Below are positions 5,311-62,119 of a stretch of 64,000 nucleotides of DNA, one piece after another. The notes below the pieces were generated by a model. It made no database searches and was not told where the DNA came from. It saw only the letters and a program-made list of their open reading frames with translations. Position 1 is the first letter of the stretch. Every line of letters starts with the position of its first letter. The position numbers and the translations under genes were made by a program. The stretch is taken from contig OX597815.1 in assembly GCA_951406725.2 (NCBI GenBank), forward strand, positions 202,368,001 through 202,432,000. The letters run 5' to 3'. The DNA is from Octopus vulgaris (Eukaryota).

Positions 5311-6254
5311 CACACAAATACACACACATAAACACACACGCACATATACAGACAGAGATAGACAGAAAGTTTCATATGTTTCTATAAACTCACATTGATA
5401 TATCCTTGTGTACAAAAGAGAGAATATTCGTTATGATTATTTTAGAAGCATTGAGTGTTGTCATTATGTTTATGTGCACGAATGAATGAGGATTCGCCAT
5501 TGCATGTGGTTGGCGGCTTTGTAATTCCGATATGCCATTACCCTTCTAGCACCTTGAAGATAAGTAGCGACCCAGAAAACGTAAGGCAATGAACCATTCA
5601 TAGAATATATATGCTTCATGCTGCATATATGATCAACGATGGGCTTACCAATGCTAACTATAATACATAAATATATAACTGTATTTCTCAGAATCTCTGA
5701 AAGTGAATGCACCACCACTGACAAACTGCGACAATTTCAGTAAGTTCTTCAGTAAGATATTGAATATTGATGCAATATTCAATGATCAGTGCTTCTCATG
5801 AACGAAATAATATCATGAATAATTTAACATATGTATCAAACACTAAACTCCAACGCGAATAATTATCTCATTTAAAGTGCATTTAGGATAAATTGTCTGG
5901 TGACGGTCGTTATAACTTATTTATATGATGTTGAAAATGTATCATCTAAAGCAAGACGATTTCGTATACTATTATCTAACACGGTTCCCTTTATTATTAC
6001 CGTTGAACATTTTCCTCAAGACATCCCATCATGCACATGATCGTAGAGCAATGCAATTATAAGCACAAATTGGATAAGGTAATTCTATCTATGAGCCATG
6101 TAATATGTATGCATTAGATTTCAATGATTGCTATACATGGAATTTACCGTCTGTTATCGACCACTGTTATTGGCATTTGATGCGGTATAATAAATATTCT
6201 TGCACACCAACGGCAAATAGAATAATCACTTACATACATACATGCATATGTGTG

Positions 6255-6298
<44 letters not shown>

Positions 6299-6302
6299 TA
6301 TG

Positions 6303-6357
<55 letters not shown>

Positions 6358-6392
6358 GTATATGTATATATAATATATATATATATGTGTGT

Positions 6393-17668: not shown

Positions 17669-18939
17669 TACAGGTATTCATAGAAGATTTCCTGTGACCC
17701 ACTTCCGGTCATTGCAGGGAACGGGACTTGTAAAGGTATGATCATACATGTTTCGACATGTTACATTGCAGATTCCAGTTTATCGATTAGTATTCAGCTG
17801 TCGTTTACGGCTGCTGAAGTGGACTAAGGTGTTATAATGGAGGTTGTTCAATTCAGATCTGTGACCAGGTTCTTACACTTGAAATGTCGTACATCAAAAG
17901 AGACTTTCGATGAGATTAAATAAGTTTATGTTGACGATACAACATCATGCAACCTAGTCAAGCCCTGGCATCCTCTGTTCACATGTGGTCAGATATTGGG
18001 GAGACTGCTCCTATTCCTGGACGACCACATTCCGCCTATGGTGCCGACACCATGAATAAACTGGAAGTCGAAGTTTTAGAGGATCGCCGCGTAATTATTC
18101 GGCAACTAAACCAAGAATTGAACATAAGTGTAGGTTCCTTAAAAAACATCATTCACGAATACTTCCACACGTTAAAGTTGTCTGCACAATGGATTTCCTG
18201 GATGTTCTCACCTTTTCAGAAACAGGAACGAATCTATTGCTCTCAGGCTCTTTTGACAATGTGCGAAGAAAGCGAGGATCTTTTCGACAGACTTATCACA
18301 CAGGATAAAACAGGGATGCATCACTATGATCCGCAGACTAAAATCCAGTCGAAGCAATGGAAAGTTGATAACTCACCACCACCAAAGAAGGCTCGCGCCC
18401 AACTCTCAGCAGGCAAGGTGATGCTCACAGTCTTTTGGGACCAGAGTCGAGTCGTGATGATAGACTTCCTAGCAAATGGAACCTCAATTAACTGGTCATC
18501 TTATGCTTCTCTTCTGCAGAAATTGCTTGCGGGATGCCATCAAAGCCGTGAGGCATGGCATGCTGAGAAAAGAAGTCCAGCCCCTCCAAGACAACGACCC
18601 AGTTCACATTGCGCATGTTGCCTAGATGAAAGCACACTCCTGCGGCTGTGAAATCCGTACTCATCTCCCTTACTCTTCCTACCTTGCATCATCTAACTTC
18701 CAAGATTATTTTGAAGGGGAAGCACTTTTCGGATGATGATGAACATATTTCCGCGGTAAAGCCTTGGCTCCAGACGCAACCTGCCGACATCTACAGATGA
18801 GATCTTTACAGTTGCATAAAGCGATGGGAGAAATGTGTCACCATTGGTGGTGCATACGTTGAGAAGGCCTAATAAAAGTTTCGTTTATCCTAGTCCTGGG
18901 AAAGTGGGTCAGAGGAAATCTTTAATGAACATCCCTTAT
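17669..18939 (+). mobile_element. Mariner (DD34D-type) transposon with disrupted transposase
   Basis: Imperfect TIRs (aagatttcctgtgacccactt / aagtgggtcagaggaaatctt). ORF 17947-18651 has ITQDKTGMHHYDP and SAGKVMLTVFWD. Downstream LQDN and H.PYS..LA.S.F motifs are out of frame. Confidence 0.9.
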
Positions 18940-24577: not shown

Positions 24578-26107
24578 TTATTTATCATGAAACTTATTAT
24601 ATAGGTAAAGTAACCTATGTCTGCATTTTATTTTGCGCTCTTCACCTGTATTAAGTAAATTATCATACTTATAAAATAAAATTTCTTTAAACTCATTAGA
24701 GCATAAATAACAACAATTCGCTCCTATAGTATATGATTTAGTTTTACAAATTATTTCCCAAATTAAACTATAATTAATATTTTGTGATTTAAGTCTCCAA
24801 AGGTACTTACTAAGTCCAGTTGAGCTGATTAAGTTTTTATTTTTGAAAGAATTCATATGTTGTGCGATTCTTAATTTTATTTTTGAGGAAGTAGACACTA
24901 TATAAACCGCTTTTGGGTAATTATTATTCTTAAAGTTATTATCATGTAATGTAACTATACATTTATACACTACATCGTTAATATCACAATTATTATTTAA
25001 TATACATTTAGATTTATCTCTACAAGTACAATTAATATAAGTCTTATCATTATTATTATTATTATCAAATAATTTATTATTATAAAAATTATTCAGTTTA
25101 AATTTATTAAATGAAGAAATAATGTTACCTACATTATTAGTGGTGGAATAACCTACTCCAAAATTATCACTCGAGAAAATGTTTCTATATTTACGATTAT
25201 CTCTAATAAATAGTTCTATAACATCTAAAATCTCTTTGGTAATATTCGTTTTTACTTGATCACCATAAGGAACTATTAACCAAATTTTATTCTTATTAAC
25301 CTTATTATTATTGTCATTATTATAAATATATTTATAATTCTTTATCTTATTAAAAGTATTATCAGAATTATATCTATGTACAGCATTTAAGGAATTATTA
25401 ATATTATTAATTTTATCAATATTATTATTATAATTATTATTAAATTTATTTTTATCGTTATTATTCTTATTTTTATTATTATTATTATTATTTTTATTCT
25501 TATTTTTATTTTTATCATTTTTATTATTATTTTTATAATATCTATTATTTTTACCACTAATACTAACAAAATTATTATTATTATTATTATAAGTATCTCG
25601 AAAATTATCATTTAAATCTTTATCACTAATATTATAAAATTTAATATTCCTATTATAACCTGCCCCTCTAAGGGCCTCATTATAATAAGTAGCATGTTTA
25701 TCAAAAATCTCTATATCATAAGAGAGTAATGAAATATGTTTACTTATATTATTAATCAACGATTTTTTAATAGAAATTGGGTGATTACTATTAACATTTA
25801 TATATCTAAGGTTCTCATTAAGTTTATGATATGGTTGTGTTTTACCTGTAATTAGATTAAAATTAACATCTAAATAATTAACATTATAATTCTCCTTATA
25901 TATAGTAATACTTAAACCATATCTTTTAAAGAAACTATATAGTTTTTTCTTATATCCTTCTAGATTCCTATTAGTACAATTATTTGTAACTAGTAGAAGA
26001 TCGTCTCTATATAAGCCACCCTCTATCTTAAGATTTTCTAATTGGAGTTCAGATAAAAGAAAAATACCTACTAAATCAGTAGCTTGTGCAGAATCTGGTG
26101 CTCCCAT
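24578..26107 (-). CDS. Penelope-like RT C-terminal half + GIY-YIG endonuclease (5'-truncated)
   Basis: RT and thumb motifs MG..S..ATDL, GLYRDD, NYLDV, YINVNSNHP. Then CTCR..C..C, VVYKC...YIVST (GIY-YIG-like), R..QH, CYLC..E. Contains an in-frame Asn-rich expansion. Confidence 0.9.
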   Translation of the reverse strand: MGAPDSAQATDLVGIFLLSELQLENLKIEGGLYRDDLLLVTNNCTNRNLEGYKKKLYSFFKRYGLSITIYKENYNVNYLDVNFNLITGKTQPYHKLNENLRYINVNSNHPISIKKSLINNISKHISLLSYDIEIFDKHATYYNEALRGAGYNRNIKFYNISDKDLNDNFRDTYNNNNNNFVSISGKNNRYYKNNNKNDKNKNKNKNNNNNNKNKNNNDKNKFNNNYNNNIDKINNINNSLNAVHRYNSDNTFNKIKNYKYIYNNDNNNKVNKNKIWLIVPYGDQVKTNITKEILDVIELFIRDNRKYRNIFSSDNFGVGYSTTNNVGNIISSFNKFKLNNFYNNKLFDNNNNNDKTYINCTCRDKSKCILNNNCDINDVVYKCIVTLHDNNFKNNNYPKAVYIVSTSSKIKLRIAQHMNSFKNKNLISSTGLSKYLWRLKSQNINYSLIWEIICKTKSYTIGANCCYLCSNEFKEILFYKYDNLLNTGEERKIKCRHRLLYLYNKFHDK

Positions 26108-26116
26108 AGGTATATC

Positions 26117-29028: not shown

Positions 29029-29589
29029 AATGAATGTTTTTATATATAATGAACGTGAAATACAGGAACTCCTCCAGCTGGGACGAACACGGAACACAGA
29101 CAAATCATTCGACAGCCGAGGTATTGACCTCTCGTCAGCGTGTCAATCTTCGCCAGTCAGACACCGAATCATCATAGCAAATTTCGGCTGTTCAATTCTG
29201 ATATTTGCTCCAACTCGGCCAGCCCCAAGAAAAAAACTAAGCTGTAAGCATTAGATTTCTTGGTAGAAGACAGGAATGTGAACGCACAAGACGGATGTAA
29301 ATACAAGAGACGAAAACGAAATTGAAAACAGTAATGAATAAACAAAAATATATATAACGGTGGTTGTCATACGACTTTAGACCAAATGAGACAGAAACAA
29401 CAACAACATAGCAGCTGGCGTAGAAATAATTACCGTTTCGGTAGCGGGGACACATGTTGGTCGAGATACGATGGCCAACAGAATGGTTTAAGAAGCAGCA
29501 GGTTGCAGGAGAGAGAGAGAAAGAGAGACAGAGAGAGAGGGAATCAACACACACACACACACTACACATACACACACACACACATATTT

Positions 29590-29642
<53 letters not shown>

Positions 29643-30325
29643 GCATACCACCACATATAAATAAATATAAATATACATATATATGTATGCATATGTATGT
29701 ATGCATGCATCTGTAACGGAGAAAGCTGCTTACTGATTAGGTATGTAACAATTACTAAAAACGCTAAAAGAAAGCAATTATTTATGGATTAACCTTCTGG
29801 AAATATTTTTATAAATTCATGTTCCAAGAAATTTCCTGTAATTTCGATTTCTCAAGTTTATTGAATTTTTTAAAACCCCTATTTCTCACAAATTTAAATG
29901 TACACTGCGTCCTATCCATCACATGTGTAAACATTCATTGCATTCACTGCGGAGTATTCCAATTTAAGTTGCAAAGTCTCTCACGTTCTCTTTTAAGGTT
30001 TAATTTGCTTTTAATGTTTAGGTAATGTAAAAACATTATTTACTGAAATGAAATTTTTTTTAAATGACCGTATAATTTTTTAACGCGGGATAGTTGTGAG
30101 ATGTGCCTCGAAAGTTGGGTACTTACTACTAGAAGACAAGGAGGGGAAAACTCGAAAAAAGACCTTATTCACACTTTCCAAACACAACTTCAACAGTGAC
30201 ACGCCCCACCCAATACATACTGGTCCAGAGGCATAGATACACAGACACACAAATGAAAGGCAATGAATGTGTGCGTGTGTGCGCGGTAGTGTTTGTGTGT
30301 GCATGCGTGCGTGCGTGCGTGTGTG

Positions 30326-30357
<32 letters not shown>

Positions 30358-30985
30358 CTGCTCACTGACAAAACTTTGTGCTGCATGACTTTTGTGAAGT
30401 TTTCTCAGAGTTGCGGTTTGAAAGCTATGAATATATTTTGACACAAATTAAGTTTTCTTGTTGAAGTGAAACTAAGGTTTTTTGTGTTCTTGAATGGTAT
30501 ACTAACATCTTCCACGCTGCAATTGATTTTGTTTCAGCATACGATCTCACATCAAGTCACTTGCTATGCAAGTACATGTCTCTAAATGCCAGCAATGACC
30601 TTCTCAGGCTCTCCAATATTTTAAATTCTAAATAGAATCAGTCGGGTGCAGAGAGTAAGGTTCCGAAATGTTCATGATTTTTCAATTTTTTTTTAACATA
30701 TGAATGTATTTATGGGGGAAAAAATATTGAAAATCATCAATACATGCGTGAGTGAAAAAGAAACGTGGTGTGTTGTCTTTGGATATGCTATAAACAACAA
30801 CCAAATCGCCCTTAAATTACTTTTCCCTCTGAAAATATTTATAAAAAAATTTTTTGTCAGTAATGCTCTCCCCATGATTTTGAAGAGCAAAAAATAAAAA
30901 TTGGCCGAAATAGGACCAGAGTGGAATGATGAGGGAGGGGGATGTTAATAAAAGAGTTTTCAAAACATCTTCATACAAAGATGCC

Positions 30986-33384
30986 AAAAATTTTTCAACA
31001 AATTTTTTGAAAATTTCACCGAAATTTTACCCAAAAATTTTTCAAAAATTTTCACCGAAAATTTTACCAAAATTTCACCGAAAATTTTACCCAAAAGTTT
31101 TTCGAAAATTTCACCGAAAATTTTACCCAAAAATTTTTCAACAAATTTTCGCAGAAAATTTTAGCCAAAAATTTATCAACAAATTTTTCCAAAATATAAC
31201 CGAAAATTTTACCCAAAAATTTTTCTAAAATTTTCACAAAAATTTTAGCCAAAAATTTTTCAACAAATTTTTCCAAAATATAACCGAAAATTTTACCCAA
31301 AAATTTTTCAAAAATTTTCACAAAAAATTTTACCCAAAAATTTTTCGAAAATTTCACCGAAAATTTTACCCACAAATTTTTCCAAAAATTTCACCGAAAA
31401 TTTTACACAAAATTTTTCCAAAATTTTCACTGAAAATTTTTTTATCCAAAAATTTTTCCGAAATTTTCAAGGAAGTTTTACCCAAAAATTTTCCCAAAGT
31501 TTTCACCGAAAATTTTACCCGAAAATTTTTCCAAAATTTTCACGGAAAATTTTACCCAAAAATTTTTCGAAAATTTTGCGAAAGTTTTCAAGAAATTTTA
31601 CCCAAAAATTTTTCCAAATTTTTCACCGAAAATTTTACCCAAAAATTTTTCCAAAAATTTTTCCTAAACTTTCAAGGAAATTTTGCCCAAAAATTTTCAC
31701 CGGAATTTTTAACACAAAAATTTACACAAAAATTTTTCACAAATTTTCACCCAAAATTTTAATCAAAAATTTTTCAAAAATTTTCACCCATAATTTTAAC
31801 CAAAGATTTTTCCGAAATTTTCGAAAATTTTACCCAAAAATTTTCCGAAAATTTTCACCGAAAATTTTACCCAAAAATTTTAACCAAAAATTTTTCCATA
31901 AATTTCACCGAAAATTTTACCCAAAAATTTTTCCAAATTTTTCACCGAAAATTTTACCCAAAAATTTTAACCAAAAATTTTTCCATAAATTAATTTTACC
32001 CTCAATTGTTGAAATTATAATTCATCTTTCTCTATTTAATGCCTCGGATTTTACCGAAAAAAAAGCATGTTGTTTGTTGATTTTAACCCACGCTGGTGGA
32101 AGGGGGAGAGCAGAAATTCTTCGCTTGCATATTTGAATTTGCTGGCACTGTTAGTTGCGAGTAGATCTTCGGAGGCGATGGGAAGCCGAATAGGTATGCT
32201 CCTGCTTTCAGTGTTTTCAAATCCAAACCAGGGAGTTCTGAGCAGATGATAGAAGTGTCGAGTTTGACTAATCTTGAAAAGTACGTTCTCAAATAACCTT
32301 TGCATTTGATTTTTTAATGTTTCTACCCTCATACTTTCGTGAGTTGAATTGAACAAGCACTATATGAGAGAGATTTTCTTTAAGTATTGGAAATAGTTTT
32401 AAAATTGTAAATTTTCCCAAAATTTTCACCTAAAATTTTACCCAAAAATTTTTCCGAAATTTTCAACAAAAAATTTCACCGAAAATTTTACCCAAAAATT
32501 TTTCAAAAATTTTCACCGAAAATTTTACCCAAATGTTTTTCAACAAATTTTAACAAAATTTCACCGAAAATTTTACCCAAATATTTTTCGAAAATTTTCA
32601 CCGAAAATTTTACCAAAAAATTTTTCAAACATTTTCACCGAAAATTTTAGCCAAAAATTTTTCAACAAATTTTTCCAAAATATAACCAAAAATTTTACCC
32701 AAAAATTTTTCGAAAATTTCTCCGAAAATTTTACCTAGAAATTTTTCAAATATTTCCACCGAAAATTTTACCCAAAAATTTTTCAAAAATTTTCAAAGAA
32801 AATTTTAACTAAAAATTTTTCGATAATTTTCCAGGAAATTTTACCGAAAATTTTTCAAAAATTTTAACCGAAAATTTTACCAAAAATTTTTCAAAATTTG
32901 AAGAGCGAAAAATACCCAGAAATTTTTCAAATATTTTCACCGAAAATTTTACCCAAAAATTTTTCAAACATTTTCACTGAAAATTTTACCCAAAAATTTT
33001 TCAAAATTTTCTCAGAAAATTTTAGCCAAAAATTTTTCAACAAATTTTCCAAAATATAACCGAAAATTTTACCCAAAAATTTTTCAAAAATTTTCACAAA
33101 AAATTTTAACCAAAAATTTTTCGAAAATTTCACCGAAAATTTTACCCAGAAATTTTTCAAATATTTTCACCGAAAATTTTAACAAAAATTTTTCTAAAAT
33201 TTTCGAAGAAAATTTTAACTAAAAATTTTTCGATAATTTTCAAGGTAAAAATTTTTCAAAAATTTTCGCCGAAAATTTTACCCAAAAATTTTCGCCAAAT
33301 TTTACCCAAAAATTTTTCCAAAAATTTCACACAAAATATTTCCAAAATTTTCACTGAAAAAATTTTCAAATTTTCAAAAACATT
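30986..33384 (+). repeat. AAAATTTT-core satellite, C-rich orientation (interrupted by unique DNA at 32002-32405)
   Basis: 11-13-bp units such as AAAATTTTCACCG, AAAATTTTACCC and AAAAATTTTTC in a roughly 36-bp higher-order pattern. Confidence 0.95.
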
Positions 33385-36300
33385 TTTCCTTGAAAATTAT
33401 CGAAAAATATTTGGGTAAAATTTTCGGTGAAATTTTGTTAAAATTTGTTGAAAAACTTTTGGGTAAAATTTTCGGTGAAAATTTTGGAAAAATTTTTGGG
33501 TAAAATTTTCGGTGAAAATTTTTGAAAAATTTTTGGTTAAAATTTTCGGTGAAATTTTGGAAAGATTTTTTGAAAAATTTCTCGGTAAAATTTTCTGTGA
33601 AAATTTTTGGTAAAATTTTCGGTTAAAATTTTTGAAAAATTTTGGGTAAAATTTCCTTGAAAATTATCGAAAAATTTTTAGTTAAAATTTTCTTTGAAAA
33701 TTTTTGGGTAAAATTTTCGGTGAAAATATTTGAAAAATTTCTGGGTAAAATTTTCGGTGAAATTTTCGGAAAATTTCTGGGTAAAGTTTTCTGAAAAATT
33801 TTTGAAAAAATTTTTGGGTAAAATTTTCGGTGAAATTTATGGAAAAATTTTTGGTTAAAATTTTCGTTGAAATTTATGGAAAAATTTTTGGGTAAAATTC
33901 CTTGAAAATTTCGGAAAAATCTTTGGTTAAAATTATGGGTGAAAATTTTTGAAAAATTTTTGATTAAAATTTTGGGTGAAAATTTGCGAAAAATTTTTGT
34001 GTAAATTTTTGTGTAAAATTTCCGGTGAAAATTTTTGGGTAAAATTTCCTTGAAAGTTTCGGAAAAATTTTTGGAAAAATTTTTGGGTAAAATTTTCGAT
34101 GAAAAATTTGGAAAATTTTTGGGTAAAATTTCCTTGAAAACTTTCGCAAAATTTTTGGAAAAATTTTTGGGTAAAATTTTCGGGTAAAATTTTCGGTGAA
34201 AACTTTGGGAAAATTTTTGGGTAAAACTTCCTTGAAAATTTCGGAAAAACTTTTGGGTAAAATTTTCGGTGAAAATTTAGAAAAAATTTTTGGGTAAGAT
34301 TTTCGGTGGAATTTTTGGAAAATTTTTGCGTAAAATTTTCAGTGAAAATTTTGGAAAAATTTTGTGTAAAATTTTCGGTGAAATTTTTGGAAAAATTTCT
34401 GGGTAAAATTTTCGGTGAAATTTTCGAAAAATTTTTAGGTAAAATTTTTTGTGAAAATTTTTGAAAAATTTTGGGTAAAATTTTCGGTTATATTTTGGAA
34501 AAATTTGTTGAAAAATTTTTGGCTAAAATTTTCTGTGAAAAGTTTTGAAAAATTTTTGGGTAAAATTTTCGGTTATATTTTGGAAAAATTTGTTGATAAA
34601 TTTTTGGCTAAAATTTTCTGCGAAAATTTGTTGAAAAATTTTTGGGTAAAATTTTCGGTGAAATTTTCGAAAAACTTTTGGGTAAAATTTTCGGTGAAAT
34701 TTTGGTAAAATTTTCGGTGAAAATTTTTGAAAAATTTTTGGGTAAAATTTCGGTGAAATTTTCAAAAAATTTGTTGAAAAATTTTTGGCATCTTTGTATG
34801 AAGATGTTTTGAAAACTCTTTTATTAACATGCCCCTCCCTCATCATTCCACTCTGGTCCTATTTCGGCCAATTTTTATTTTTTGCTCTTCAAAATTTTAG
34901 CCCCAGGATGACGCACTCCTCCAGCTGGCCATAGACACACTATCTGTGTCCTGTCAGTATTTGCAAAGGGAAGTCATCCTTCCTGTCTTCAACTTATGAT
35001 ACACACGGACTCGAGTTTCGAGGTATTGACCTCTCGTCAGCGTGTGACAATCATAGTTGTCGCCGAGAATTAGATTTCCTTCACAAATATTATACTTTTT
35101 CCAGCGTCCACTGTCGCTGATATTGAAAAATTTTGGGTAAAATTTTCGGTGAAATTTTTTGGTGAAAATTTCGGAAAAATTTTTGGGTAAAATTTTCGGT
35201 GAAAATTTTGGGAAAATTTTTGAAAAATTTTTGTGTAAAATTTTGGAAAAATTTTTGTGAAAAATTTGTGTAAAATTTTCGTGAAAATTTTAGAAAAATT
35301 TTTGTGTAAAATTTTCGGTGAAATTTTTGGAAAAATTTTTTTGAGTAAAATTTTTAGGTAAAATTTTCGCCGACAAATTTAGAAAAATTTTTGGGTAAAA
35401 CTTCCTTGAAAATTTCGGAAAAATTTTTGTGTAAAATTTTCGGTGAAAATTTTGGAAAAATTTTTGGGTAAAATTTTCCGTGAAAATTTTTGAAAAATTT
35501 TTGGTTAAAATTTTCGGTGAAATTTTGGAAAAATTTTTTGAAACATTTCTCGGTAAAATTTTCTGTGAAAATTTTTGAAAAATTTTTAGTAAAATTTTCG
35601 GTTAAAATTTTTGAAAAATTTTTGGTAAAATTTCCTTGAAAATTATCAATAAATTTTTAGTTAAAATTTTCTTTGAAAATTTTTGAAAAATTTTTGGGTA
35701 AAATTTTCGGTGGAAATATTTGAAAAATTTCTAGGTAAAATTTTCGGTGAAATTTTCGAAAAATTTTTGGGTAAAATTTTTGGTTATATTTTGGAAAAAT
35801 TTGTTGAACAATTTTTGGCTAAAATTTTCTGTGAAAATTTTTGAAAAATTTTTCGGTAAAATTTTCCGTGAAAATATCTGAAAAATTTTTTGGTAAGATT
35901 TTCGATGAAATTTTCGAAAAATATTTGGGAAAAATTTTCGGTTATATTTTGGAAAAATTTGTTGAAAAATTTTTGGCTAAAATTTTCTTAGAAAATTTTT
36001 GAAAAATTTTTGGGTAAAATTTTCGGTGAAAATGTTTGAAAAATTTTGGGGTAATATTTTCGGTGAAAATATTTGAAAAATTTCTGGGTATTTTTCGCTC
36101 TTCAAATTTTGAAAAATTTTTGGTAAAATTTTCGTTTAAAATTTTTGAAAAATTTTCGGTAAAATTTCCTGGAAAATTATCGAAAAATTTTTAGTTAAAA
36201 TTTTCTTTGAAAATTTTTGAAAAATTTTTAGGTAAAATTTTCGGTGAAAATGTTTGAAAAATTTTTTGGTGAAATTTTCGAAATATATTTGGGTAAAATT

Positions 36301-36623
36301 TTCGGTGAAATTTTGTTAAAATTTGTTGAAAAACTTTTGGGTAAAATTTTCGGTGAAATTTTTGAGAAACTTTTGGGTAAAATTTTCGGTGAAATTTTTT
36401 GGTGAAAATTTCGGACAAATTTTTGGGTAAAATTTTAGGTGAAAATTTTGGGAAAATTTACAATTTGTTGAAAAATTTTTGGGTAAAATTTTCGGTGAAA
36501 TTTTCGAAAAACTTTTGGGTAAAATTTTCGGTGAAATTTTGGTAAAATTTTCGGTGAAAATTTTTGAAAAATTTTTGGGTAAAATTTCGGTGAAATTTTC
36601 AAAAAATTTGTTGAAAAATTTTT
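33385..36623 (-). repeat. Same satellite, G-rich (inverted) orientation, interrupted at 34787-35124
   Basis: Units GGGTAAAATTTT and CGGTGAAAATTTT. The interruption is the inverted tip of segment A (34787-34894) plus the HHR-bearing unit B (34895-35124). Confidence 0.95.
35002..35046 (-). ncRNA. Perfect minimal type I hammerhead ribozyme
   Basis: Minus strand: cacacg-CTGACGA-gaggt caat acctc-GAAA-ctcgag-TC-cgtgtg. 6-bp stem I, 5-bp stem II, palindromic stem III ACTCGAGT, GUC triplet. Predicted cut between 35008 and 35007. Confidence 0.92.
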
Positions 36624-37250
36624 GGCATCTTTGTATGAAGATGTTTTGAAAACTCTTTTATTAACATCCCCCTCCCTCATCATTCCACTCTGGTCCTATT
36701 TCGGCCAATTTTTATTTTTTGCTCTTCAAAATCATGGGGAGAGCATTACTGACAAAAAATTTTTTTATAAATGTTTTCAGAGGGAAAAGTAATTTAAGGG
36801 CGATTTGGTTGTTGTTTATAGCATATCCAAAGACAACACACCACGTTTCTTTTTCACTCACGCATGTATTGATGATTTTCAATATTTTTTCCCCCATAAA
36901 TACATTCATATGTTAAAAAAAATTGAAAAATCATGAACATTTCGGAACCTTACTCTCTGCACCCGACTGATTCTATTTAGAATTTAAAATATTGGAGAGC
37001 CTGAGAAGGTCATTGCTGGCATTTAGAGACATGTACTTGCATAGCAAGTGACTTGATGTGAGATTGTATGCTGAAACAAAATCAATTGCAGCGTGGAAGA
37101 TGTTAGTATACCATTCAAGAACACAAAAAACCTTAGTTTCACTTCAACAAGAAAACTTAATTTGTGTCAAAATATATTCATAGCTTTCAAACCGCAACTC
37201 TGAGAAAACTTCACAAAAGTCATGCAGCACAAAGTTTTGTCAGTGAGCAG

Positions 37251-37284
<34 letters not shown>

Positions 37285-37964
37285 CACACACGCACGCACG
37301 CACGCATGCACACACAAACACTACCGCGCACACACGCACACATTCATTGCCTTTCATTTGTGTGTCTGTGTATCTATGCCTCTGGACCAGTATGTATTGG
37401 GTGGGGCGTGTCACTGTTGAAGTTGTGTTTGGAAGGTGTGAATAAAGTGTTTTTTCGAATTTTCCCCTCCTTGTCTTCTAGTAGTAAGTACCCAACTTTC
37501 GAGGCACATCTCACAACTATCCCGCGTTAAAAAATTATACGGTCATTTAAAAAAATTTCATTTCAGTAAATAATGTTTTTACATTACCTAAACATTAAAA
37601 GCAAATTAAACCTTAAAAGAGAACGTGAGAGACTTTGCAACTTAAAATGGAATACTCCGCAGTGAATGCAATGAATGTTTACACATGTGATGGATAGGAC
37701 GCAGTGAACATTTAAATTTGTGAGAAATAGGGGTTTAAAAAATTCAATAAACTTGAGAAATCGAAATTACAGGAAATTTCTTGGAACATGAATTTATAAA
37801 AATATTTCCAGACGGTTAATCCATAAATAATTGCTTTCTTTTAGCGTTTTTAGTAATTGTTACATACCTAATCAGTAAGCAGCTTTCTCCGTTACAGATG
37901 CATGCATACATATATATGTATATTTATATTTATATTTATATTTATATATATGTGGTGGTATGCT

Positions 37965-38037
<73 letters not shown>

Positions 38038-38038
<1 letters not shown>

Positions 38039-38374
38039 ACAATGATAAATATCAAAGTGAGTTATATACAGTAGCGGTAACACATCGTGACGTATTTTTG
38101 CCATTTCAATATGGCTAACCCCTAAGGGTGGATGCTACTGTAGTTTTTAGCCCCAGGAGGACGCACTCCTCCCGCTGGCCATAGACACACTATCTGTGTC
38201 CTGTCAGTATTTGCAAAGGGAAGTCATCCTTCCTGTCTTCAACTTATGATACACACGGACTCGAGTTTCGAGGTATTGACCTCTCGTCAGCGTGTGACAA
38301 TCATAGTTGTCGCCGAGAATTAGATTTCCTTCACAAATACTTATACTTTTTCCAGCGTCCACTGTCGCTGATAT
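38038..38374 (-). mobile_element. pLTR-like unit B (longer copy), abutting (TA)n; 38145-38374 is repeated at 34895-35124
   Basis: Direct repeat with offset 3250 and few substitutions. Contains the hammerhead. A related diverged fragment is at ~29066-29150. Confidence 0.7.
38252..38296 (-). ncRNA. Perfect minimal type I hammerhead ribozyme (identical to 35002-35046)
   Basis: Same 45-nt sequence. Predicted cut between 38258 and 38257. Confidence 0.92.
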
Positions 38375-39660
38375 TGAAAAATTTTGGGTAAAATTTTCGG
38401 TGAAATATTTTGGTGAAAATTTCGGAAAAATTTTTGGGTAAAATTTTCGGTGAAAATTTTGGGAAAATTTTTGGGTAAAATTTTCCGTGAAAATTTTTGA
38501 AAAATTTTTGTGTAAAATTTTGGAAAAATTTTTGTGAAAAATTTGTGTAAAATTTTCGGAGAAAATTTTGGAAAAATTTTTGTGTAAAATTTTCGGTGAA
38601 ATTTTTGGAAAAATTTTTTTGAGTAAAATTTTTAGGTAAAATTTCCGCCGACAAATTTAGAAAAATTTTTGGGTAAAACTTCCTTGAAAATTTCGGAAAA
38701 ATTTGTGTAAAATTTTCGGTGAAAATTTTGGAAAAATTTTTGGGTAAAATTTTCCGTGAAAATTTTTGAAAAATTTTTGGTTAAAATTTTCGGTGAAATT
38801 TTGGAAAAATTTTTTGAAACATTTCTCGGTAAAATTTTCTGTCAAAATTTTTGAAAAATTCTTGGTAAAATTTTGGAAAAATTTTTGTGAAAAATTTGTG
38901 TAAAATTTTCCTTGAAAATTTTGGAAAAATTTTTGTGTAAAATTTTCGGTGAAATTTTTGGAAAAATTTTTTTGAGTAAAATTTTTAGGTAAAATTTTCG
39001 CCGACAAATTTAGAAAAATTTTTGGGTAAAACTTCCTTGAAAATTTCGGAAAAATTTTTGTGTAAAATTTTCGGTGAAAATTTTGGAAAAATTTTTGGGT
39101 AAAATTTTCCGTGAAAATTTTTGAAAAATTTTTGGTTAAAATTTTCGGTGAAATTTTGGAAAAATTTTTTGAAACAATTCTCGGTAAAATTTTCTGTGAA
39201 AATTTTTGAAAAATTTTTGGTAAAATTTTCGGTTAAAATTTTTGAAAAATTTTGGGTAAAATTTCCTTGAAAATTATCGAAAAATATTTGGGTAAAATTT
39301 TACCCAAATATTTTTCGAAAATTTCACCGAAAATTTTACCAAAAAATTTTTCAAACATTTTCACCGAAAATTTTACCCAAAAATTTTTCAAAAATTTTCA
39401 CAAAAAATTTTAGCCAAAACTTTTTCAACAAATTTTTCCAAAATATAACCAAAATTTTACCCAAAAATTTTTCGAAAATTTCACCGAAAATTTTACCTAG
39501 AAATTTTTCAAATATTTCCACCGAAAATTTTACCCAAAAATTTTTCAAAAATTTTCAAAGAAAATTTTAACTAAAAATTTTTCGATAGTTTTCCAGGAAA
39601 TTTTACCGAAAATTTTTCAAAAATTTTTACCGAAAATTTTACCAAAAATTTTTCAAAATT
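38375..39660. repeat. Satellite array switching from G-rich to C-rich orientation at 39297/39298
   Basis: Perfect 42-bp palindrome at 39277-39318 marks the switch. Confidence 0.95.
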
Positions 39661-40488
39661 TGAAGAGCAAAAAATAAAAATTGGCCGAAATAGCACCAGA
39701 GTGGAATGATGAGGGAGGGGGATGTTAATAAAAGAGTTTTCAAAACATCTTCATACAAAGATGCCCGCAACCATTTGGACGGCTGTGGTTTAAAAAATAA
39801 AGAAAATCACCGAAAACATTTTCCCGGCAAATATCTTTATAATCGTAATCTATGCCGTTTGAAAGGTATTCGTATAAATCTTCATTAAAACAATCACATC
39901 TTCCTGAGGGTAAAAATTCAGATCTCCAAAATTATCTATCTCCAACCAAAATCCTCAATAAAAATTTTCAAATATAAGTACAAAAACCGACATACATAGA
40001 AATATCTATTTAGGTGCGAGCAAGTTGGAGTGCCATTTTATTTTTTTCTCATCGTTTTGGGTTTTTTTAATTCTTTTTTTATGTTTTAACTTTGAAATTT
40101 AGAATTTTTATATTTGAAATAAATTTTTGCGTTATATTTTATTATATTCCCATTTTTATGTATGAATTAATACGCAGCCTTCTAATACCCCACTTTCACA
40201 TATATCCAGAGACCTAATATATAAAAAATATATATATTATAAAAAGGTTGAAAGGAATTGAAGAAATATTTATAAACACTTGGACCCTAAAATCTACCTT
40301 CAAACAACACAAGGTTTAAAATTTCTACATACAGATCAAATTGTTTATTGAACAGTTAAATGAACAGCTACAGAGAAACTTTCAGATCAACAACTTTTAC
40401 TCTTACCCACATACATTTATGAACATCAAAGCACAATATAAACAAATTCCTTTGCTAACAACATGACATGCCTGCCAAATAAACCTCA

Positions 40489-41873: not shown

Positions 41874-42332
41874 ACATACATAATACGTATACATACATAT
41901 ATACATATATATATATCTTTCTGTGTTCCCTTCTGTATAATGCAAACATTCTTGTTCATTGAGGAAGATTGTATATCTCCAGTACCGAAAACATAATTTC
42001 ATTTTTATACACAATATCATTGCAGGAAAGGGAAATGTACTAAATCGTACAGATTACAACTTGGATTCTTGGAGAAGAAACTTAGAACCATAACTCCGGT
42101 TTACGGAGGAATATCCTAATACCTACTAACTACATAAACGATGAATGATTGCTTAAATGACGGAAAGCGAAAACTTTTTTCAAAGATGCAATTGAGTAGG
42201 CGTATCATGATGATAAATATTAAAACACTTATCAGAACGTGATAAGTCATAGAGCCCATACATACATATACGCCCATATGGACACTACATCTATTTAAAT
42301 AACGAGCTTACCTAATTTCTCAATTTTTCATG

Positions 42333-42370
<38 letters not shown>

Positions 42371-42948
42371 TTTGAGTTTCTCTAATGCATTTTATTTTAT
42401 TTTTATATACTAATGTACTGAATTCTTTATTGTTATTGATTGGAGATTAACCATAGAAGAAAATGAGGAACAAAATACGAAGCGAGGAATATAAAATCAC
42501 TATGAAAAAATCAATTTCTCAATAGTTGATACTGGAGCAAAAACTATGGTGTTATTGTTGTTTTCAAGAAAGATAATGTTTAGCATTTCATTCCAACTTA
42601 CTTAAATACGTCCCAATGAAAATGTTATAAAATTCTTAAAAGAAATCAATCGTAGACTTTTATGTATACCATTATTTTTCTTTATTTCACATCCACCCTA
42701 CCTTTCAAATGTTCTATTTTCATGTCTGTCTTAAACATTTCTTGTTTAATTTTATATCTAAATGTATACAAAAACGATAAAAGAAATTAGGTATCGATAA
42801 GAAGCGAACATTGAAATAAGATTTATAGAGTTCGCACTCATGTGGTTGATTGCATCTTAGTAAGCCTAGTAAGTACAGCTGTACGTACATTACAAATTAC
42901 TATACTTTTTATAACGATAAAACAATCACATTGTCCTCTTAACAACTT

Positions 42949-52225: not shown

Positions 52226-52970
52226 AGTATGTTTCGATCGAAAACCTACCAAAATTCTAAATAAGGCGAGAAAGTTTTATTTGTCCATTACACAAAAGGA
52301 AATGCAGAATATATGCGCATACGTATATACATATATATGTATGTATTGATATGTATGTGTATGTATGCATGTAAATGGGCAAATGCAACTGCGCGTGTTT
52401 GTGTGTGCGTGCGCGCGCGCGTGTGTGTGTGCATTTTTGCATTGTTTCTACTGTTGTGCTCCTTGGGACCCCCTTGTAGTGGTTTTAAAATAAATTATAT
52501 GAAATATTATTGTTATATTTGAGGACTATACAGAAATAAATACACGCAGGAGTGGCTGTGTGGTAAGTAGCTTTGCTAACCTCACTGACAGAAGAGTGAC
52601 TTTGCTTACCGTACTACGGTGTGGACGCGTTTTCTTCCCGGTAAGAGTTTTGCTGTGTTGTTAATTGTTGAATTCCTACTACTGAAAATTTGCCTTTAAA
52701 CGTTGCTGAACTGTCTTGTTCTCCAGTTTTACCGGGAAATAATTGAATAATTTCTTACCGTTGAACTGTTAGCCACTGTGGCTTTTTATTTACGTGACTA
52801 TATATAGTCCTGCCAGACTATTTTCGTGCCCCTCCCCCGAATGGGGGTGGGAATTGGAATTTTTGAACTGCTTTTTTGAACTACTTTGGAAGAAAAACTT
52901 TCTATAGGTTTCCCAGTTTTGTGGGAAACCAATATTCGTAATTTTTGTGTTGTCTAATTTCAACAGAATA

Positions 52971-54375
52971 ATGTCTGTTGAAATTATTCACGAAAGTAGT
53001 GCTCTTGAGGAGAGCAATGTTAAAAAATTTTCTGAGGTAGCCGCAGTGGCTACCGAGAACATTGACATCGATGTCAACCAGCTCGTCGAGCTATTTAAAA
53101 GAATGCAAGAGGAGGGTGGTGATGTTAAAATATCACCCTCCGCCAGTATCGTGGAGACCGAGAAGCGAACCGTAGCGTTTAAAACTTTCTGTCCACAAAG
53201 CAGAAGGTTCAAACACTTTGAAAAAAGCACCATCGAGAAATGCCTGTCACCGATTTGGAAGGACATCGTGTACGTCGCCAGGGGACGGGCATATGGCACT
53301 GTGGATGTCCGCTTCTCGGGGGAAGAAATGACCCGCGGGCATTCTGTGAACCCCCTAAAAACCAAGGAGGTGGTACTTTTCTCAAGCTATAGGGGACGCA
53401 GGACGTCCCGTGTCAGGATTGTAGAAGCCCCGCCGGAAGAAGATCCGGTAGAGGTAGTGGCCGCCCTGTTATACAAAAGGGCAGACAAAATAAAAATACT
53501 ACAAGTAACATGCTCTACCCCTCTATTTTGGCTCGGGCGTAACATTAATATATTAATTCAAGGAACAGCAGAGGACCTACAGCTCCTTCCTGAGAGGGTG
53601 CTCGTGGGCGAGAACGTAGCCCTCAGGGTTAAGGTCGAAGGCCGAAAACCCACCTGTTACGCCTGCGGCAAAAAGGGCCACATTCGTGTAGACTGTCCAG
53701 ACAAGCAAAAGAAACCGCAGACACCAGGCCCCTCAGATAATAAAAAAGTTCCTACCCTTGCAAACACACCTACCCCTACAAAAACAAAAAATCCCACTCC
53801 CGCTGTTACGGTGCCAACCCCAAAACAGACTGATGAAAAAACCCAGCCCTCGCACTCACAAACCCCTACACTATTAAAACCTCCCACACCCCTAAGAACT
53901 GCGGCGCCTACCGGACAAACTATTGCCACCCCAGACGATACCATGGAGGTATCAGAGGGTGGATTTACACCAGTTCGTAAAAGAATTCGTGCAGCATCCC
54001 CGTCCACATCCCCTACAAAAAATAATAAAAACAAAGACACACCACAGACACGGAAAAAAAAAATCCCGCTCAACTGGCCCAGAAAAAGAAGACAAAAAAG
54101 AAAATGAACTCATATTAATTGAATTCGACACACAAGACAAATACATAAACGATATTGTGGTTCAGCATCAGTCAAAAAGACTGTACAACAAATACAAAGA
54201 TCGAAATAGACACGCGTGGATTGCGGAAACAACGTTCAAACAATTAAAAGACAGACACCCAAACGCCATCCGGCATATCGCGAACTTGCCGGACTATCTG
54301 AAGAAAGAGGAGAAAGAAGGGGCCCACAAACATGTGGTGAGGTCGGCCCCCACCTCTCCAACGAAATGTAAGTAG
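52971..54375 (+). pseudogene. LINE ORF1 (gag-like nucleic-acid-binding protein), probably frameshifted in the A-run near 54055
   Basis: Zinc knuckle CYACGKKGHIRVDC followed by a Pro/Thr-rich tail. Continues in ORF 53923-54375. Confidence 0.8.
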
Positions 54376-57356
54376 AACTTGGTTGTTTAAATGTGCGTGG
54401 TCTGAGTTCGAAGTGGAAGCAGGCTTGTTTCCTCGACGGACCTCAGATCACATGATATACATGTGATGGTTGCTACAGAGACCAAGCTGGACAGCCTACA
54501 AACCTTCTCGCCTCTCCTGAATGGCTACGAGAAAATCATGTCTCCTGGCCAGACCGGAGGGCGAGGGGGCGTAGTGGTACTGATCCGTAAAGACTTGGCT
54601 CTACAGACAAGTACAGTCTATGTAGACCCAGAAGGTCGTCCTTGATGTGACATACAGCAGTAAGGCCTTCAGGTTGATCGGACTCTATGCACCTTGTGCT
54701 AGAGGTTTCCAAACTGATTTTTATCGGCGCCTAGAGGGCTTTCTCGTGACGTCGAAGACTTTAGTGATATTAGGGGACTTTAATGCTATCGTTGACGTAC
54801 ACATCGATAGCGTTGGCTCGATCTATAGGAAAGTGAACTCACGTCTCGTGGATCTACTTAAGCGGTTTCAGCTGGCAGATCGTTACAGACTTGACCATCC
54901 GAACGTCCCAGAGTGGACCTGGATGAGTGGCGACGGAAGGTTCAAGTCTTATCTAGACAGGATAGTGATAAGAACTAGAGATAAGTCTAGTTTTAGTTGT
55001 CCACAGCTCGTCCAGGTGCCCTATACTGACCATAGAATGGTCACGTGTAGACTGGACATAGATAGCACACTTAAGATAGGAACCGGCTACTGGAAGCTGA
55101 ACAAGTCTATTTTGACACGCGAGGCATACCGTAGCCGGATTAAGGTGTTAGTGCAGAGGGCGTTAACCGGAGCCGTGGTTAATAACCGGTGGTGGTTCAC
55201 CCTCAAAAGAGCCATTCGATTCGAGTCCATTAGATTTAGTAAACAACTAAGACTAGATAGGGCTAGAATAGAAGGGCAACTAGTTAAGGACTTAGAGGAG
55301 GCGTTGAGGTTGGGCTCTGCATCTCACATTTTAGCGGCGAGAACGGCATTAGACCGTCACCTCAAAACCAAACATGAGGGATGTAGAGTCCGGGCTAAAG
55401 TACGAGCATTGGGCCGTGAGGGAATTAATGTTGCCGGATGACCCGTACGATAGAAACACAGCGTGGAAACGATGCCACAATTGGGTCTCTTGTTGATGAA
55501 AACGGATGCACGATCAAGAAGCGGGACGAGATGTGTGAGGCACTTCACAAGCACTTCGCCGAGTTGTTCGGGCGGTGCGGGACGCTGGATCATGGTGAGG
55601 CCCTTAGGGACTTCCTGTCTGGTGGTCCGCGCCTCTCGACACGAGAGGCTGAGTGCTGTGAAGGGCCAATCACAGCCGAGGAAGTAATCGAGGTGTTGGG
55701 CAAGTGCCCCAGGAAGAAGTCGCCGGGTCTCGATGGTCTGCCCTATGAATTTTATAGAAGTATGCCAGACTTGTTCGGGCACCTGCTGGCTAGCGTCTAC
55801 GCCAACTGGCAGCAGAATGGGAGAATTCCCAAGTCTGCGAGCCGGGGGGCGGTGACATTGATCAGGAAGGACCCGAACAAGGGGGACGAGATAGGGAACT
55901 TCAGGCCCATAACTCTGTTAAACACAGAGTTAAAGATTCTGGCCAAGGTGCTAGCAAAAAGGTTGGCGCGGGTCGTGGACAAACTTGTCGGGGAAGCGCA
56001 AACGTGCGCTATCCCCGGCAGAACGGTCCACGACAATCTCCACCTTATACGCTACTCCTTAGAGAGGGTGGGGAAGCTTTCTGGCGCAGGGGGAGCACTG
56101 GTACATTTAGACCAGTCCAAAGCATTTGATAGGGTCGACCATCGGTACCTGGCGGCGGTCCTCGGAGAGGCTGGCCTAGGCCCGACCTTTCGAGGTTGGA
56201 TCGCTGCTTTGTATAGCGACATCGAGTTCAGTTCGTCATGGGTGTCCCCTGTCCTCGCTCCTATACGTATTGGCTCTTGAGCCTTTGCTGCGGAAGTTGG
56301 AGGCACTAGGGTGCGCGCCGCATGATTTATGGTGTGGAAGAGGAGCTACGGCGTATGCGGATGACACCTCCATCATCGTGGCAGACGAAGACCAGCTTCC
56401 AGTGGTGGAAGAGGCCATCAAAAGCTACGAGGCGGTGGCAGGAGCAAAGGCTAACAAGGACAAGTCGGTCGGTTTGCAACTCGGCACCTGGAGGGGTAAG
56501 CCGATGCCGTCCAATAACGTCGTAGGGCGTTGGACGGAAGGTCCTGTTAAGCTGCTCGGAGTCTGGTTCGGGCCAGACCTCCAGATTGAGAAAAATTGGA
56601 GTGAGGTGGCCAACAAGGTGACCGCTCTAACCCAGACCTGGTCTGGGCGGGCGTTATCACTGCTAGGGAAGGCGGAGGTGGTGCAGATGTTTATAGCATC
56701 AGTAATCACCTACCGTCTGACCGTGGTGCCTTGCCCCGATTTGTGGCTGAACAAGTTGGAGAGAATCCTTTTCCGATTTTTGTGGAAAGGAGGAAAGCCA
56801 CTTGTAAAGCGCTCTGTCTGCTGCCAGAAACCGCTAAAGGGTGGGCTAGGGATGCCTTGGCTAAGGATGCGAAAACTCGCGTTAAGGTTGAGGCACCTCT
56901 GGCTTTACCTGGATGGAGAGCAGGTGTGGTCACCGCACGTCCGGTTCTACCTTCCCCAGTTAACATCCCTAACGGACATCGGTGCATGGATCAAGCGGAG
57001 ACCTAAACTGAGTGAATGGCATTTGGAGTGCCGTCAGGCGCTCCAGCTACTATCTCGGGTGGGCAACGCCGGCAACAGGAGAATCTATCATCGAGATTGT
57101 GCCGCCCCCTTTCCTTAACTGGGAAAGAAAGGCTTGGTTTTTCTGTGTAGTAGCCATACTGAAAGAAACAGTATGGAAGACGCGTACGAAAGGTATAGTG
57201 ACAGGCACCTTTGTCTCCGGCCAGGGGTTGATTAACTTTTTTAGTTACCACCTCAGTAGCAAAATCAGGCTGGAGAAGAGGTGTCTGCCACGAGATATGT
57301 TTGTGAAAAGATGGAAGCCTGTGGCATACAAGATGGGTATGTTTGGCACCAGGTAA
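54375..57356 (+). pseudogene. LINE ORF2 (APE endonuclease + reverse transcriptase) with stops, frameshifts and deletions
   Basis: APE motifs CLNVRGL, ATETK, GDFNA, SYLDR, TDH, WKLN. RT motifs KSPGLDGLPYEFY, NFRPITLLN, LDQSKAFDRVDH, GCPLS, AYADD. Confidence 0.92.
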
Positions 57357-60387: not shown

Positions 60388-62088
60388 TTTTTTTTTCTTC
60401 TTTCAAATTTTCTTCCATTTCTTGCCGAGTGTCTTCCCGACTCCTAGGGCAAAGAAACTCATAGTGTATATTGGTAGGCCATTAAACCAAACTCAGTAGT
60501 TCGTTCATTTTTTTTTTTTTTTTTTTTTTTAAAGTTAAATTAAAATACATGAGCAGCAACAGTTCTCACATCGACAATGCTCTTCTCAATACGTGTGATG
60601 TACCAGTTAAAACAATCTTTTGCACTTCTTGCAGGGATGGTAAGCCAGGGATCATTCTCATATAATTTTCGGTTCCCTTCTTGATCATTCCTAGTGCTCC
60701 TACGATCACTGGTATTGTAACCGCCTTGAGATGCCACATTTTCTCAATTTCAATGAGTAGGTCTTTATATTTTCTGAGCTTGTCAAACTCTTTCGCTGAG
60801 ATATTATGATCACAGGGGATGCTCATGTCGATCAATAAGCAAACTTTATTGTTTTGGTCTTTCACAACAATATCTGGTTTATTGGCCTTGATGGTTCGGT
60901 CTGTATGTACTGGAAAGTCCCACAGAATGGTTACATTTTCTCCTTCAGTTACAGCCTCAGGGTGGTGATTATACCACTTGTCGGCAGTTTTGATATTGTA
61001 ATGCCGACTTATTAGCCAGTGGAGATATTGGCCAATTCTGTCATGTCTTAATTTATACTCCACTGGTGCTAAGACTTTACATCCAGAGATTAGGTGGTCC
61101 ACTGTTTCAATCATATCGTTGCAGAATCGGCATTTTGGGTCTGCTCCATTTTTCATCACATTGGCCTGGTAGTTCCGGGTTAATAGGCTTTGGTCTTGAG
61201 CAGCCAGGATGAAACCTTCGCTCTCTGCTTTTAGCCCTGAGCTCCGCAGCCACTGATGGGTTTGCTTCTGGTCAACATCAGCTTGTTTGCTGCGGGTCAC
61301 ATATTTGCCGTGCAGAGGTTTCTCCTCCCACCTATCAGCCAATTGCTCGTGCGCTTTTTTCATTGCCATCATTTTCACCTTCTTTGCAACAATAGTTGCC
61401 GTACTTCCCTCGGGTTGTTCAGTTTGGGTATCCTGCACGAGATCAATAGCAATTTTTTTGCTTTCCTTGATGGTAGAATGAAGCTTCTTTCGTCTCTCGT
61501 GATTTTTCACGAGCTTTAGCATCCAGTCATTCGATATTTCGAGATATTTGGCCAGTCCAATTGTGGTTGTTTTGTAAGCTAGTTCAAATTGGATCAGGCC
61601 TCGACCTCCTTGGGCTCTGGGAAGGTAAAGGCGATCTACGTCTGCCTTTGGGTGGTGCATCCTATTACAACTCAGCAGCTTGCGTATTTTCCTATCTATA
61701 TTCTTTACTTCACTCATATTCCAGTTCAACACATTGTAGCTATAAGTAACAACTGGAACTGCTAAGGAATTTATAGCTAACACCTTGTTACGTGCATTTA
61801 GTTCAGATTTCAGGACTGCACGAACTCTCCTATAACATTCCTTCCTGATTTCTCTTTCATGCTTGCATGCTGAATACCAGAGCCTTCATTTATCCCTAAA
61901 TATTTGTATGTCTGTTCTTGCTCAAGCTCTCTTATGACTGTGTCAACATCTAACACGACTGAATTTGTGGTCTTCACTTTCCCTTTCTGGAAAGTGGCCT
62001 TGGCACACTTCTCAAGTCCAAACTCCATCCCGATGTCATCGCTGAATGCTTTCACGGTGCGCAATAGGCCTTCAAGTTCATTATTGTC

Positions 62089-62090
<2 letters not shown>
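60386..62090 (-). mobile_element. R4/Dong-type element family B, 5'-truncated (RT end, CCHC finger, REL endonuclease)
   Basis: EFGLEKC, YKYLG, GGRGL, CRFC...ETVDHLISGC, RHD, KPDIVV..ID...P, KLRKY. One frameshift near 61850. Flanked by (TTA)n. Confidence 0.92.

Positions 62091-62119
<29 letters not shown>

Follow-up and report, generated by a model that had tools for sequence, protein, structure and literature searches.

In a window of 64,000 nucleotides from Octopus vulgaris (positions 202,368,001 to 202,432,000 of contig OX597815.1, assembly GCA_951406725.2), two identical type I hammerhead ribozymes bracket 3,250 nt of satellite and copied flank, which an earlier sequence-only reading had taken for a mobile, retrozyme-like carrier of the satellite. 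Both ribozymes were found to lie in copies (B1 on the left, B2 on the right) of one repeat, unit B, whose sequence identifies it as a piece of a young tandem retrozyme with 353-bp monomers and no long terminal repeats (non-LTR), here named Rz353. We think it probable that an ordinary Rz353 insertion, the right copy, was partly duplicated as the left copy in a one-off local rearrangement. The right copy is likely the insertion of this 353-nt retrozyme by a Penelope-like reverse transcriptase (RT) at a (TA)n tract, and the left copy is likely a partial DNA-level duplicate from a template-switching rebuild of the neighbouring palindromic satellite region. That two hammerheads bracket 3,250 nt is likely a by-product of this one local copy-and-paste rearrangement, and comparison of sequences across the genome does not support the stretch between them as a mobile unit carrying satellite.

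Scanning the whole window on both strands with a descriptor returned exactly two complete type I hammerheads, identical in sequence and both on the minus strand, at the places given by the sequence-only reading. With the two unit B copies that hold them, they are arranged as follows, monomer positions being counted from the cleavage site.

34895 to 35130, minus strand: B1, a partial Rz353 copy (monomer positions 230-353, then 1-113)
35002 to 35046, minus strand: left type I hammerhead, with C17 at 35008 and the predicted cut between 35008 and 35007
37965 to 38037, no strand: (TC)n(TA)n microsatellite seen in the sequence, the probable insertion target of B2
38038 to 38381, minus strand: B2, an Rz353 copy of 344 bp (monomer positions 230-353, then 1-220)
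38252 to 38296, minus strand: right type I hammerhead, with C17 at 38258 and the predicted cut between 38258 and 38257

The two predicted cuts are by computation 3,250 nt apart, so the spacing proposed for a released RNA was correct, cleavage itself being a prediction. Helix I of the ribozyme is CACACG/CGUGUG (6 bp, continuing beyond a bulge), helix II has 4-5 bp, and helix III consists of two pairs closed by the palindromic tetraloop UCGA. The helices fit the 'canonical' metazoan type I form described in PMC4209133 better than the minimal Penelope type named in the sequence-only reading; the weak palindromic helix III of the canonical form is said there to favour dimers. A dimer fold through ACUCGAGU is feasible by prediction (cofold of -12.1 kcal/mol), and the active fold lies about 7 kcal/mol above the minimum-energy fold in its sequence context, in a prediction without tertiary contacts. 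Monomer constructs of coral and mussel retrozymes are reported to cleave, whereas that of axolotl needs dimers (PMC7229834), and eight of nine predicted Xenopus dimers failed to cleave in one study (10.64898/2026.07.22.740005). Dimer action of the window hammerheads is therefore plausible from such modelling, rather than a requirement. An Rfam scan gave no match at the gathering score.

The 45-nt ribozyme of the window had 407 exact matches in the 2.8-Gb genome (227 contigs) and its reversed control had none, so the motif is not a chance occurrence; unit B likewise had near-identical matches on many chromosomes. We sampled 57 loci, drawn from the first 100 of the 407 exact matches with the window's two excluded and all lying on C1-C4, and fetched about 4 kb on either side of each. 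Copies are spaced 353 bp, one arm at L144 holding up to five full monomers, and 163 of 178 hammerhead motifs in the fetched, partly overlapping loci are the same as those of the window. The monomer has a GC content of 42.5%, and its circle is predicted to fold at -116.9 kcal/mol (z of -5.8 against two-letter block shuffles). With a hammerhead in each unit, dispersed tandem repeats within about 150-450 bp, GC below 50% and no coding sequence, Rz353 is, on these sequence features, a non-LTR retrozyme as defined in the consulted parts of PMC7229834 and 10.64898/2026.07.22.740005. Older relatives of 70-80% identity occur at L104:6320-6780, L187:531-980, L207:3717-4364, L086, L117 and L020; they share the hairpins after the cleavage site, and some are tandem or inverted. 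At L128:1066-4357, a decayed Penelope-like open reading frame (ORF) with a zinc-finger linker and a GIY-YIG end has Rz353 directly after it, between two (TA)n tracts, an arrangement representing a nested insertion or a chimera. No published description of Rz353 or of the second family discussed below, Rz560, was found in the literature searched, which excluded Repbase and the supplements of PMC7229834 and bioRxiv.

Across the 57 Rz353 loci, 77 of 86 3' ends fall on two preferred sites about 46 nt apart, 49 at positions 171-174 and 28 at 216-221, and (TA)n adjoins 78 of the 86 3' ends and 21 of 28 5' ends. Two inverted arms are present in 29 of the 57 inserts; 23 of these 29 have one end on each site, and in none do both ends come from the same site. 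Craig et al. (2021, 10.1101/2021.04.23.441226) describe copies of Penelope-like elements (PLEs) as partial tandems, with a truncated copy in inverted orientation and one end bearing a tail; according to Frangieh et al. (2024, PMC11167929), the tail is set by two sites inside the element at which the RT starts, and both strands are cut in AT-rich DNA. Rz353 inserts likewise show two internal start sites (the tail), inverted arms and an AT-rich target. Because this end pattern matches the two-start PLE signature, we infer that Rz353 was moved by a Penelope-like RT, and the earlier suggestion that hammerheads of retrozyme type are linked here to Penelope-like machinery gains support from the family and its insert ends. 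A tblastn search with the PLE protein matched one of 79 stretches, 3 kb from the insert.

B2 fits this family closely, matching a natural monomer from L111 at 341 of 344 positions, with its 3' end on a preferred family site beside (TA)n and its 5' end fused to satellite via the 7-mer TGAAAAA, which is present in both partners. B1 ends off the preferred sites and is joined to a short segment, C, with a 1-nt overlap. At an offset of 3,250, the two copies of unit B (34895-35130 and 38145-38381) differ by two substitutions and one gap; the direct repeat of about 230 bp running into matching satellite was thus rightly seen, and its right copy proved longer, 344 bp ending at (TA)n. Substitutions at monomer positions 24 and 95 are common to B1 and B2 and occur otherwise in only 1 of 121 and 1 of 137 aligned copies, the position-24 variant also being present in three public runs of DNA-like character, as the minor letter at below 1% of depth. 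In addition, B1 has two private changes and B2 one, none of them found in 105-138 other aligned copies. Judged from these shared variants, B1 and B2 come from one insertion or one template. The exact junction of unit B with satellite has two matches in the genome, both in the window, and the junction of C with B1 has one, also in the window.

The proposed association of retrozyme and satellite was absent in both directions. None of the 57 other Rz353 loci contained the satellite in the sequence fetched (five or fewer shared 14-mers, against 1,503-3,352 in controls; 0 bases masked with a satellite mask), and neither did any of 29 shorter, partly overlapping Rz353 stretches. Conversely, none of 24 other satellite loci (31 stretches with 100 kb of array; the best-scoring satellite matches and not a random sample) had a retrozyme of our eight-sequence library joined to the array, related retrozyme families lying 246 and 486 bp from the array at two of them. 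The 3,250-nt stretch has no copies at unlinked loci and no head-to-tail repeat of the unit. Since these loci show no association either way, the junctions are unique to the window and no copy of the flank segment A above 83% identity was found outside it among 40 candidates, the idea of a mobile 3,250-nt satellite carrier is unsupported, and the test set by the sequence-only reading, whether unit B is associated with the satellite elsewhere, went against it at the DNA level. Non-satellite pieces that were captured or duplicated, with no retrozyme among them, are present at several other satellite loci. Moreover, a tandem duplication of 6.3 kb (99.6%) at C9:75.17 Mb takes in a complete Rz353 insert together with its flank and contains no satellite; plain duplication, or assembly duplication, can therefore place hammerheads on either side of kilobases of flank.

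The map of the surrounding segments, made by local comparison, places both copies of unit B inside an inserted block of 8.7 kb.

30879 to 30985, plus strand: segment C, 107 bp, a direct repeat with 39659-39765 that flanks the 8.7-kb inserted block
30986 to 34786, no strand: arrays of satellite to the left of B1, folding back around a centre at about 33360-33385; the sequence of 34786-33806 tracks that of 30986-31932 in inverted form
31985 to 32404, plus strand: a fragment of Rz560 (a second tandem hammerhead family, with a monomer of about 560 bp), fused to satellite at both ends
35131 to 36623, no strand: satellite rich in AAAATTTT, with 12-, 13- and 37-bp periods
36624 to 37912, no strand: segment A, which includes C, an inverted copy of 29696-30985
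38381 to 39658, no strand: satellite right of B2, with an internal duplication of 353-355 bp and an orientation flip at about 39294
39659 to 39765, plus strand: the right-hand copy of segment C, at which the block returns to the original flank

Segment A differs from 29696-30985 by 12 substitutions and 4 gaps in 1,289, which confirms, in inverted form, that it is a 1.3-kb copy of the local flank. Outside the window lie 38 of the 40 matches listed for it, all of 77-83% identity; segment A thus appears from sequence to be a piece of an older dispersed repeat. Segment C was also considered as a transposon terminal repeat and rejected, being an internal piece of that older repeat. Inverted copies of C lie at 34787-34895 and 36624-36732. 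Because members of the segment A family continue from C directly into 39766-39924, the earlier order of the locus was A, C and right flank, and hence the two direct copies of C bracket 8.7 kb of added DNA. This block contains satellite in both orientations, two fold-back points, two inverted copies of C, inverted A, B1, B2 and the 420-bp piece at 31985-32404.

The minus strand had been read as a tandem of satellite, B and A, a layout that the comparison does not bear out. Within the satellite between B1 and A, 35131-35566 duplicates 38381-38842, and the remainder of 35131-36623 corresponds to other arrays nearby, in both orientations and with the order shuffled. In register at the 3,250 offset, satellite identity extends 436 bp to the right of B (430 matches), and to the left of C it extends 162 bp (162/162; C and these 162 bp recur at an offset of 1,837). 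Beyond these stretches identity falls to background, with 351 of 434 and 360 of 455 matches, and further left the satellite instead tracks the inverted array at 31 kb (450/455). Altogether only about 670 bp are repeated at the 3,250 offset. Long exact matches between the arrays occur at many offsets and in both orientations, a pattern that we would expect if templates had been switched repeatedly by way of palindromic AAAATTTT words. Six duplicate pairs, among them 41874-42789 against 51373-50425, and the comparison of B2 with its family all diverge by 0.85-1.09%, and this uniform divergence of about 0.9% points to one episode.

Three further observations concern the satellite. The pair 38512-38821 and 38865-39176 is a satellite duplication whose offset, 353-355, equals the retrozyme monomer length; we treated this as coincidence because offsets of 319-413 are common in that satellite. 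At 41874-42948, compared with 51373-49669, flank DNA has been taken up in inverted form between two satellite arrays, again at about 0.9% divergence and with no retrozyme. Elsewhere the satellite recurs with a 32-bp minisatellite (L180, L181, L183 and L185) and with a shared 200-bp segment (L182 and L185), suggesting composite units that spread together.

The family, its copy number and end sites, the uniqueness of the junctions and the segment map are direct observations, and the following course of events could have produced the locus. Tandem Rz353 arrays would be transcribed and then processed by the hammerhead; a Penelope-like endonuclease would nick (TA)n, and its RT would start at 171-174 or 216-221, so that inserts have either one arm or two. 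In the window, the arm begun at 220 may have become joined to satellite via TGAAAAA. At about the same time, microhomology-driven copying, with AAAATTTT permitting jumps in both orientations, would have made second copies of satellite, of A and C and of part of B, and skipping of 1,413 bp in this duplication would have left B1. The resulting hammerhead pair would bracket 3,250 nt by accident, and a minus-strand transcript through both hammerheads, if one is made, could be excised and ligated.

Several findings weigh against this explanation by local DNA duplication. Firstly, 25 of the 28 ends at 216-221 sit in two-armed inserts; B2 may accordingly be a single arm, the other having been diverted or replaced on insertion. 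Secondly, 34895-38842, read from B1 rightwards, fits about 1.2 turns around a 3,250-nt circle; B1 as it stands cannot be the template of B2, however, because the circle needs two hammerheads first and B1 is without positions 114-220. Thirdly, no independent read or contig was shown to span the junction of C with B1 or of B with satellite: when four public contig sets (X1, X2, X3 and X16), whose individuals may differ, were compared with 34770-35180, none of the pieces listed bridged either junction. The public runs listed included no RNA holder. Fourthly, Rz560 is also fused into the window satellite, with about 1.6e-4 expected per 8.7 kb as a lower bound; several such families exist in the genome. 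The Rz560 family is young and tandem, with two preferred 3' sites and (TA)n targets (L189-L197) and 82 exact ribozyme matches at about 52 places; the window hammerhead at about 32239-32291 carries two private substitutions, one of them in the core. No second Rz560 copy lies within 10 kb either side, and the one nearby copy checked, 376 kb away, was rejected as a local donor, being 93.7% alike. Pure DNA copying therefore accounts poorly for the Rz560 piece.

Mixed inserts elsewhere add to this weight. L099:2518-4561 and 5979-6372 (C1:70.536-70.540 Mb) are two inserts between (TA)n tracts that combine Rz353 with Rz476, a 476-bp hammerhead family. The insert at L193:476-2085, again bounded by (TA)n tracts, joins an inverted pair of PLE pseudo-LTR (pLTR) pieces with hammerheads directly to an Rz560 array, a candidate indication of Rz560 being moved by this PLE clade. 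At L098 (C1:70517037-70525698), an Rz353 piece with ends other than (TA)n lies at the centre of a 3.7-kb inverted duplication of 98.9%, in a region that includes 200 N and whose assembly is uncertain.

The Rz560 piece, the mixed inserts and the 216-221 ends favour a rather doubtful alternative, in which the whole 8.7-kb block is one compound retrotransposition: a PLE RT primed on Rz353 at site 220 would have switched among Rz353 and Rz560 RNAs, satellite and DNA of the neighbourhood until it returned to the chromosome at C. On this view the retrozyme would have caused the rearrangement, and the 3,250-nt stretch would still not be a mobile unit. Such an event would explain how two retrozyme families of the same age came to be fused to satellite within 7 kb, and it would agree with the chimeras at L099 and L193 and the inverted duplication at C1:70.52 Mb; PLE protein is also reported to cut and extend both strands in vitro (PMC11167929). 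Nevertheless, satellite arrays elsewhere seldom end at (TA)n (4 of 31 stretches, at one outer end), none of the 24 satellite loci had a tested retrozyme joined, B1 and the Rz560 piece end off the preferred sites of their families, a similar inverted capture of flank at 41.9-42.9 kb took place without a retrozyme, and the C1:70.52 Mb region is broken by its 200 N. As a general proposition, we tentatively consider it possible that PLE RTs hop among hammerhead retrozyme RNAs, satellite and flank within one insertion, producing kilobase patchworks and inverted duplications of which the 8.7-kb block would be one.

An artefact of assembly or consensus that produced all or part of the duplication in a palindromic low-complexity region is quite unlikely. 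The uniform divergence of 0.9% could be allelic, and the odd retrozyme patches at 29.07-29.15 kb and extra letters near fold-backs at other loci (L022) resemble consensus mixing; but the window is free of N, B1 and B2 each have their own private variants, the satellites beside them differ by a 26-bp indel and the 353-bp internal duplication, and four copies of C in two orientations with unique junctions are unlike two haplotypes in tandem. Most improbable is the original proposal that a 3,250-nt RNA was released, circularised and copied by a PLE, spreading satellite and flank: both ribozymes are intact and the same as the commonest family form, their dimer pairing is feasible by prediction and the structure of B2 (site 220, then upstream satellite) is what a copy of such a circle would show, but no copy and no retrozyme-satellite association was found at the loci sampled, the unit itself is not repeated, RT starts on the linear RNA lie 220 nt or less from its 5' end and copying would take in satellite only after circularisation, PLE insertion in vitro is reported to be independent of hammerhead cleavage (PMC11167929), and retrozyme monomers are reported at 51-972 bp (10.64898/2026.07.22.740005).

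Two neighbouring features of the window touch on the retrozyme.

24578 to 26110, minus strand: a 5'-truncated PLE copy of a young family with full ORFs elsewhere
29069 to 29150, minus strand: short patches of 11, about 25 and 3 nt that match Rz353 and are collinear with it

Elsewhere this PLE family has ORFs of 838-841 amino acids with their own hammerhead about 270 nt upstream. Motifs in the ORF were recognised by eye as what we take to be RT and GIY-YIG; Atlas neighbours of the protein carry GIY-YIG and RVT_1 at 0.95-0.97, which is a lead, and sequence searches of Pfam and PDB with the protein gave no relevant match. With one ORF holding RT plus GIY-YIG at its C-terminus, a hammerhead in the pLTR, and tandem and inverted copies, the family has the features of an endonuclease-bearing (EN+) PLE. 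Both it and Rz353 target (TA)n and have two 3' ends. The hammerhead of the PLE family is a different one, and the local alignment score of the pLTR with Rz353, 33, was reached by 78 of 200 shuffles. With no pLTR similarity above shuffles, the nearby PLE is not a proven partner of Rz353, and its family is a candidate only.

At 29069-29150, three or four patches sit inside a (TA)n-associated repeat copy that is otherwise the same as its family; they could be real templated insertions or consensus mixing, and none was present in five aligned copies of the host repeat. The hammerhead half at 29.1 kb was rejected as a second ribozyme family, being missing from the 14 other fetched copies of the host repeat. 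The window further holds a broken non-LTR retrotransposon with RVT_1 (52908-57356), a second RT fragment with zf-RVT below cut-off (60566-62118) and a mariner-type transposase fragment (17935-18651).

With the carrier unsupported, the window locus offers no new route of satellite spread. What stays useful is a young, near-identical retrozyme family with a two-start Penelope signature in 77 of 86 ends. The mechanism by which animal retrozymes are mobilised is, according to a 2026 preprint (10.64898/2026.07.22.740005), still to be elucidated, and the Rz353 ends, together with the chimeras of retrozyme families and a PLE pLTR, open it to a direct test with PLE protein in purified form. If the hopping of PLE RTs among templates were true, the two-start ends and cross-family chimeras would be genomic proof of Penelope machinery moving animal retrozymes.

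Among known systems, Rz353 resembles the metazoan non-LTR retrozymes reported by Cervera and de la Pena (2020, PMC7229834) in having a type I hammerhead per monomer, tandem arrays, a similar length (353 bp, against mussel repeats of 350-390 bp), 42% GC, a highly structured predicted circle and coexisting Penelope-like elements. It differs from those described there in forming a sequence family of its own, strictly targeted to (TA)n and with its 3' ends fixed at two sites, and the 3,250-nt stretch of the window is not a retrozyme monomer. With the PLE insertions described in 10.1101/2021.04.23.441226 and PMC11167929, Rz353 shares 5' truncation, partial tandems, an inverted second arm, a 'tail' at one end, AT-rich targets and two RT start sites downstream of the hammerhead, but it is without an ORF and its tail is 43-50 nt, against 30-40 reported for PLEs. 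The 8.7-kb block recalls Terminons, which are portrayed in PMC6431247 as Penelope-related and hammerhead-bearing with neighbouring DNA caught between units. According to that account Terminons are giant, multi-ORF and attached to telomeric repeats, whereas the block is interstitial, non-coding and unrepeated elsewhere; indeed, 34.9-38.4 kb holds only satellite-derived or low-complexity frames, and the ribozyme is followed by retrozyme body instead of telomeric repeat. Finally, local n-jump and duplication-inverted-triplication-duplication rearrangements (PMC7025897) are like the block in their clustered direct and inverted gains, short-homology junctions and a distant templated piece; they are described in that source from human genomes, whereas the jumps in the window pass through palindromic satellite and involve retrozyme pieces.

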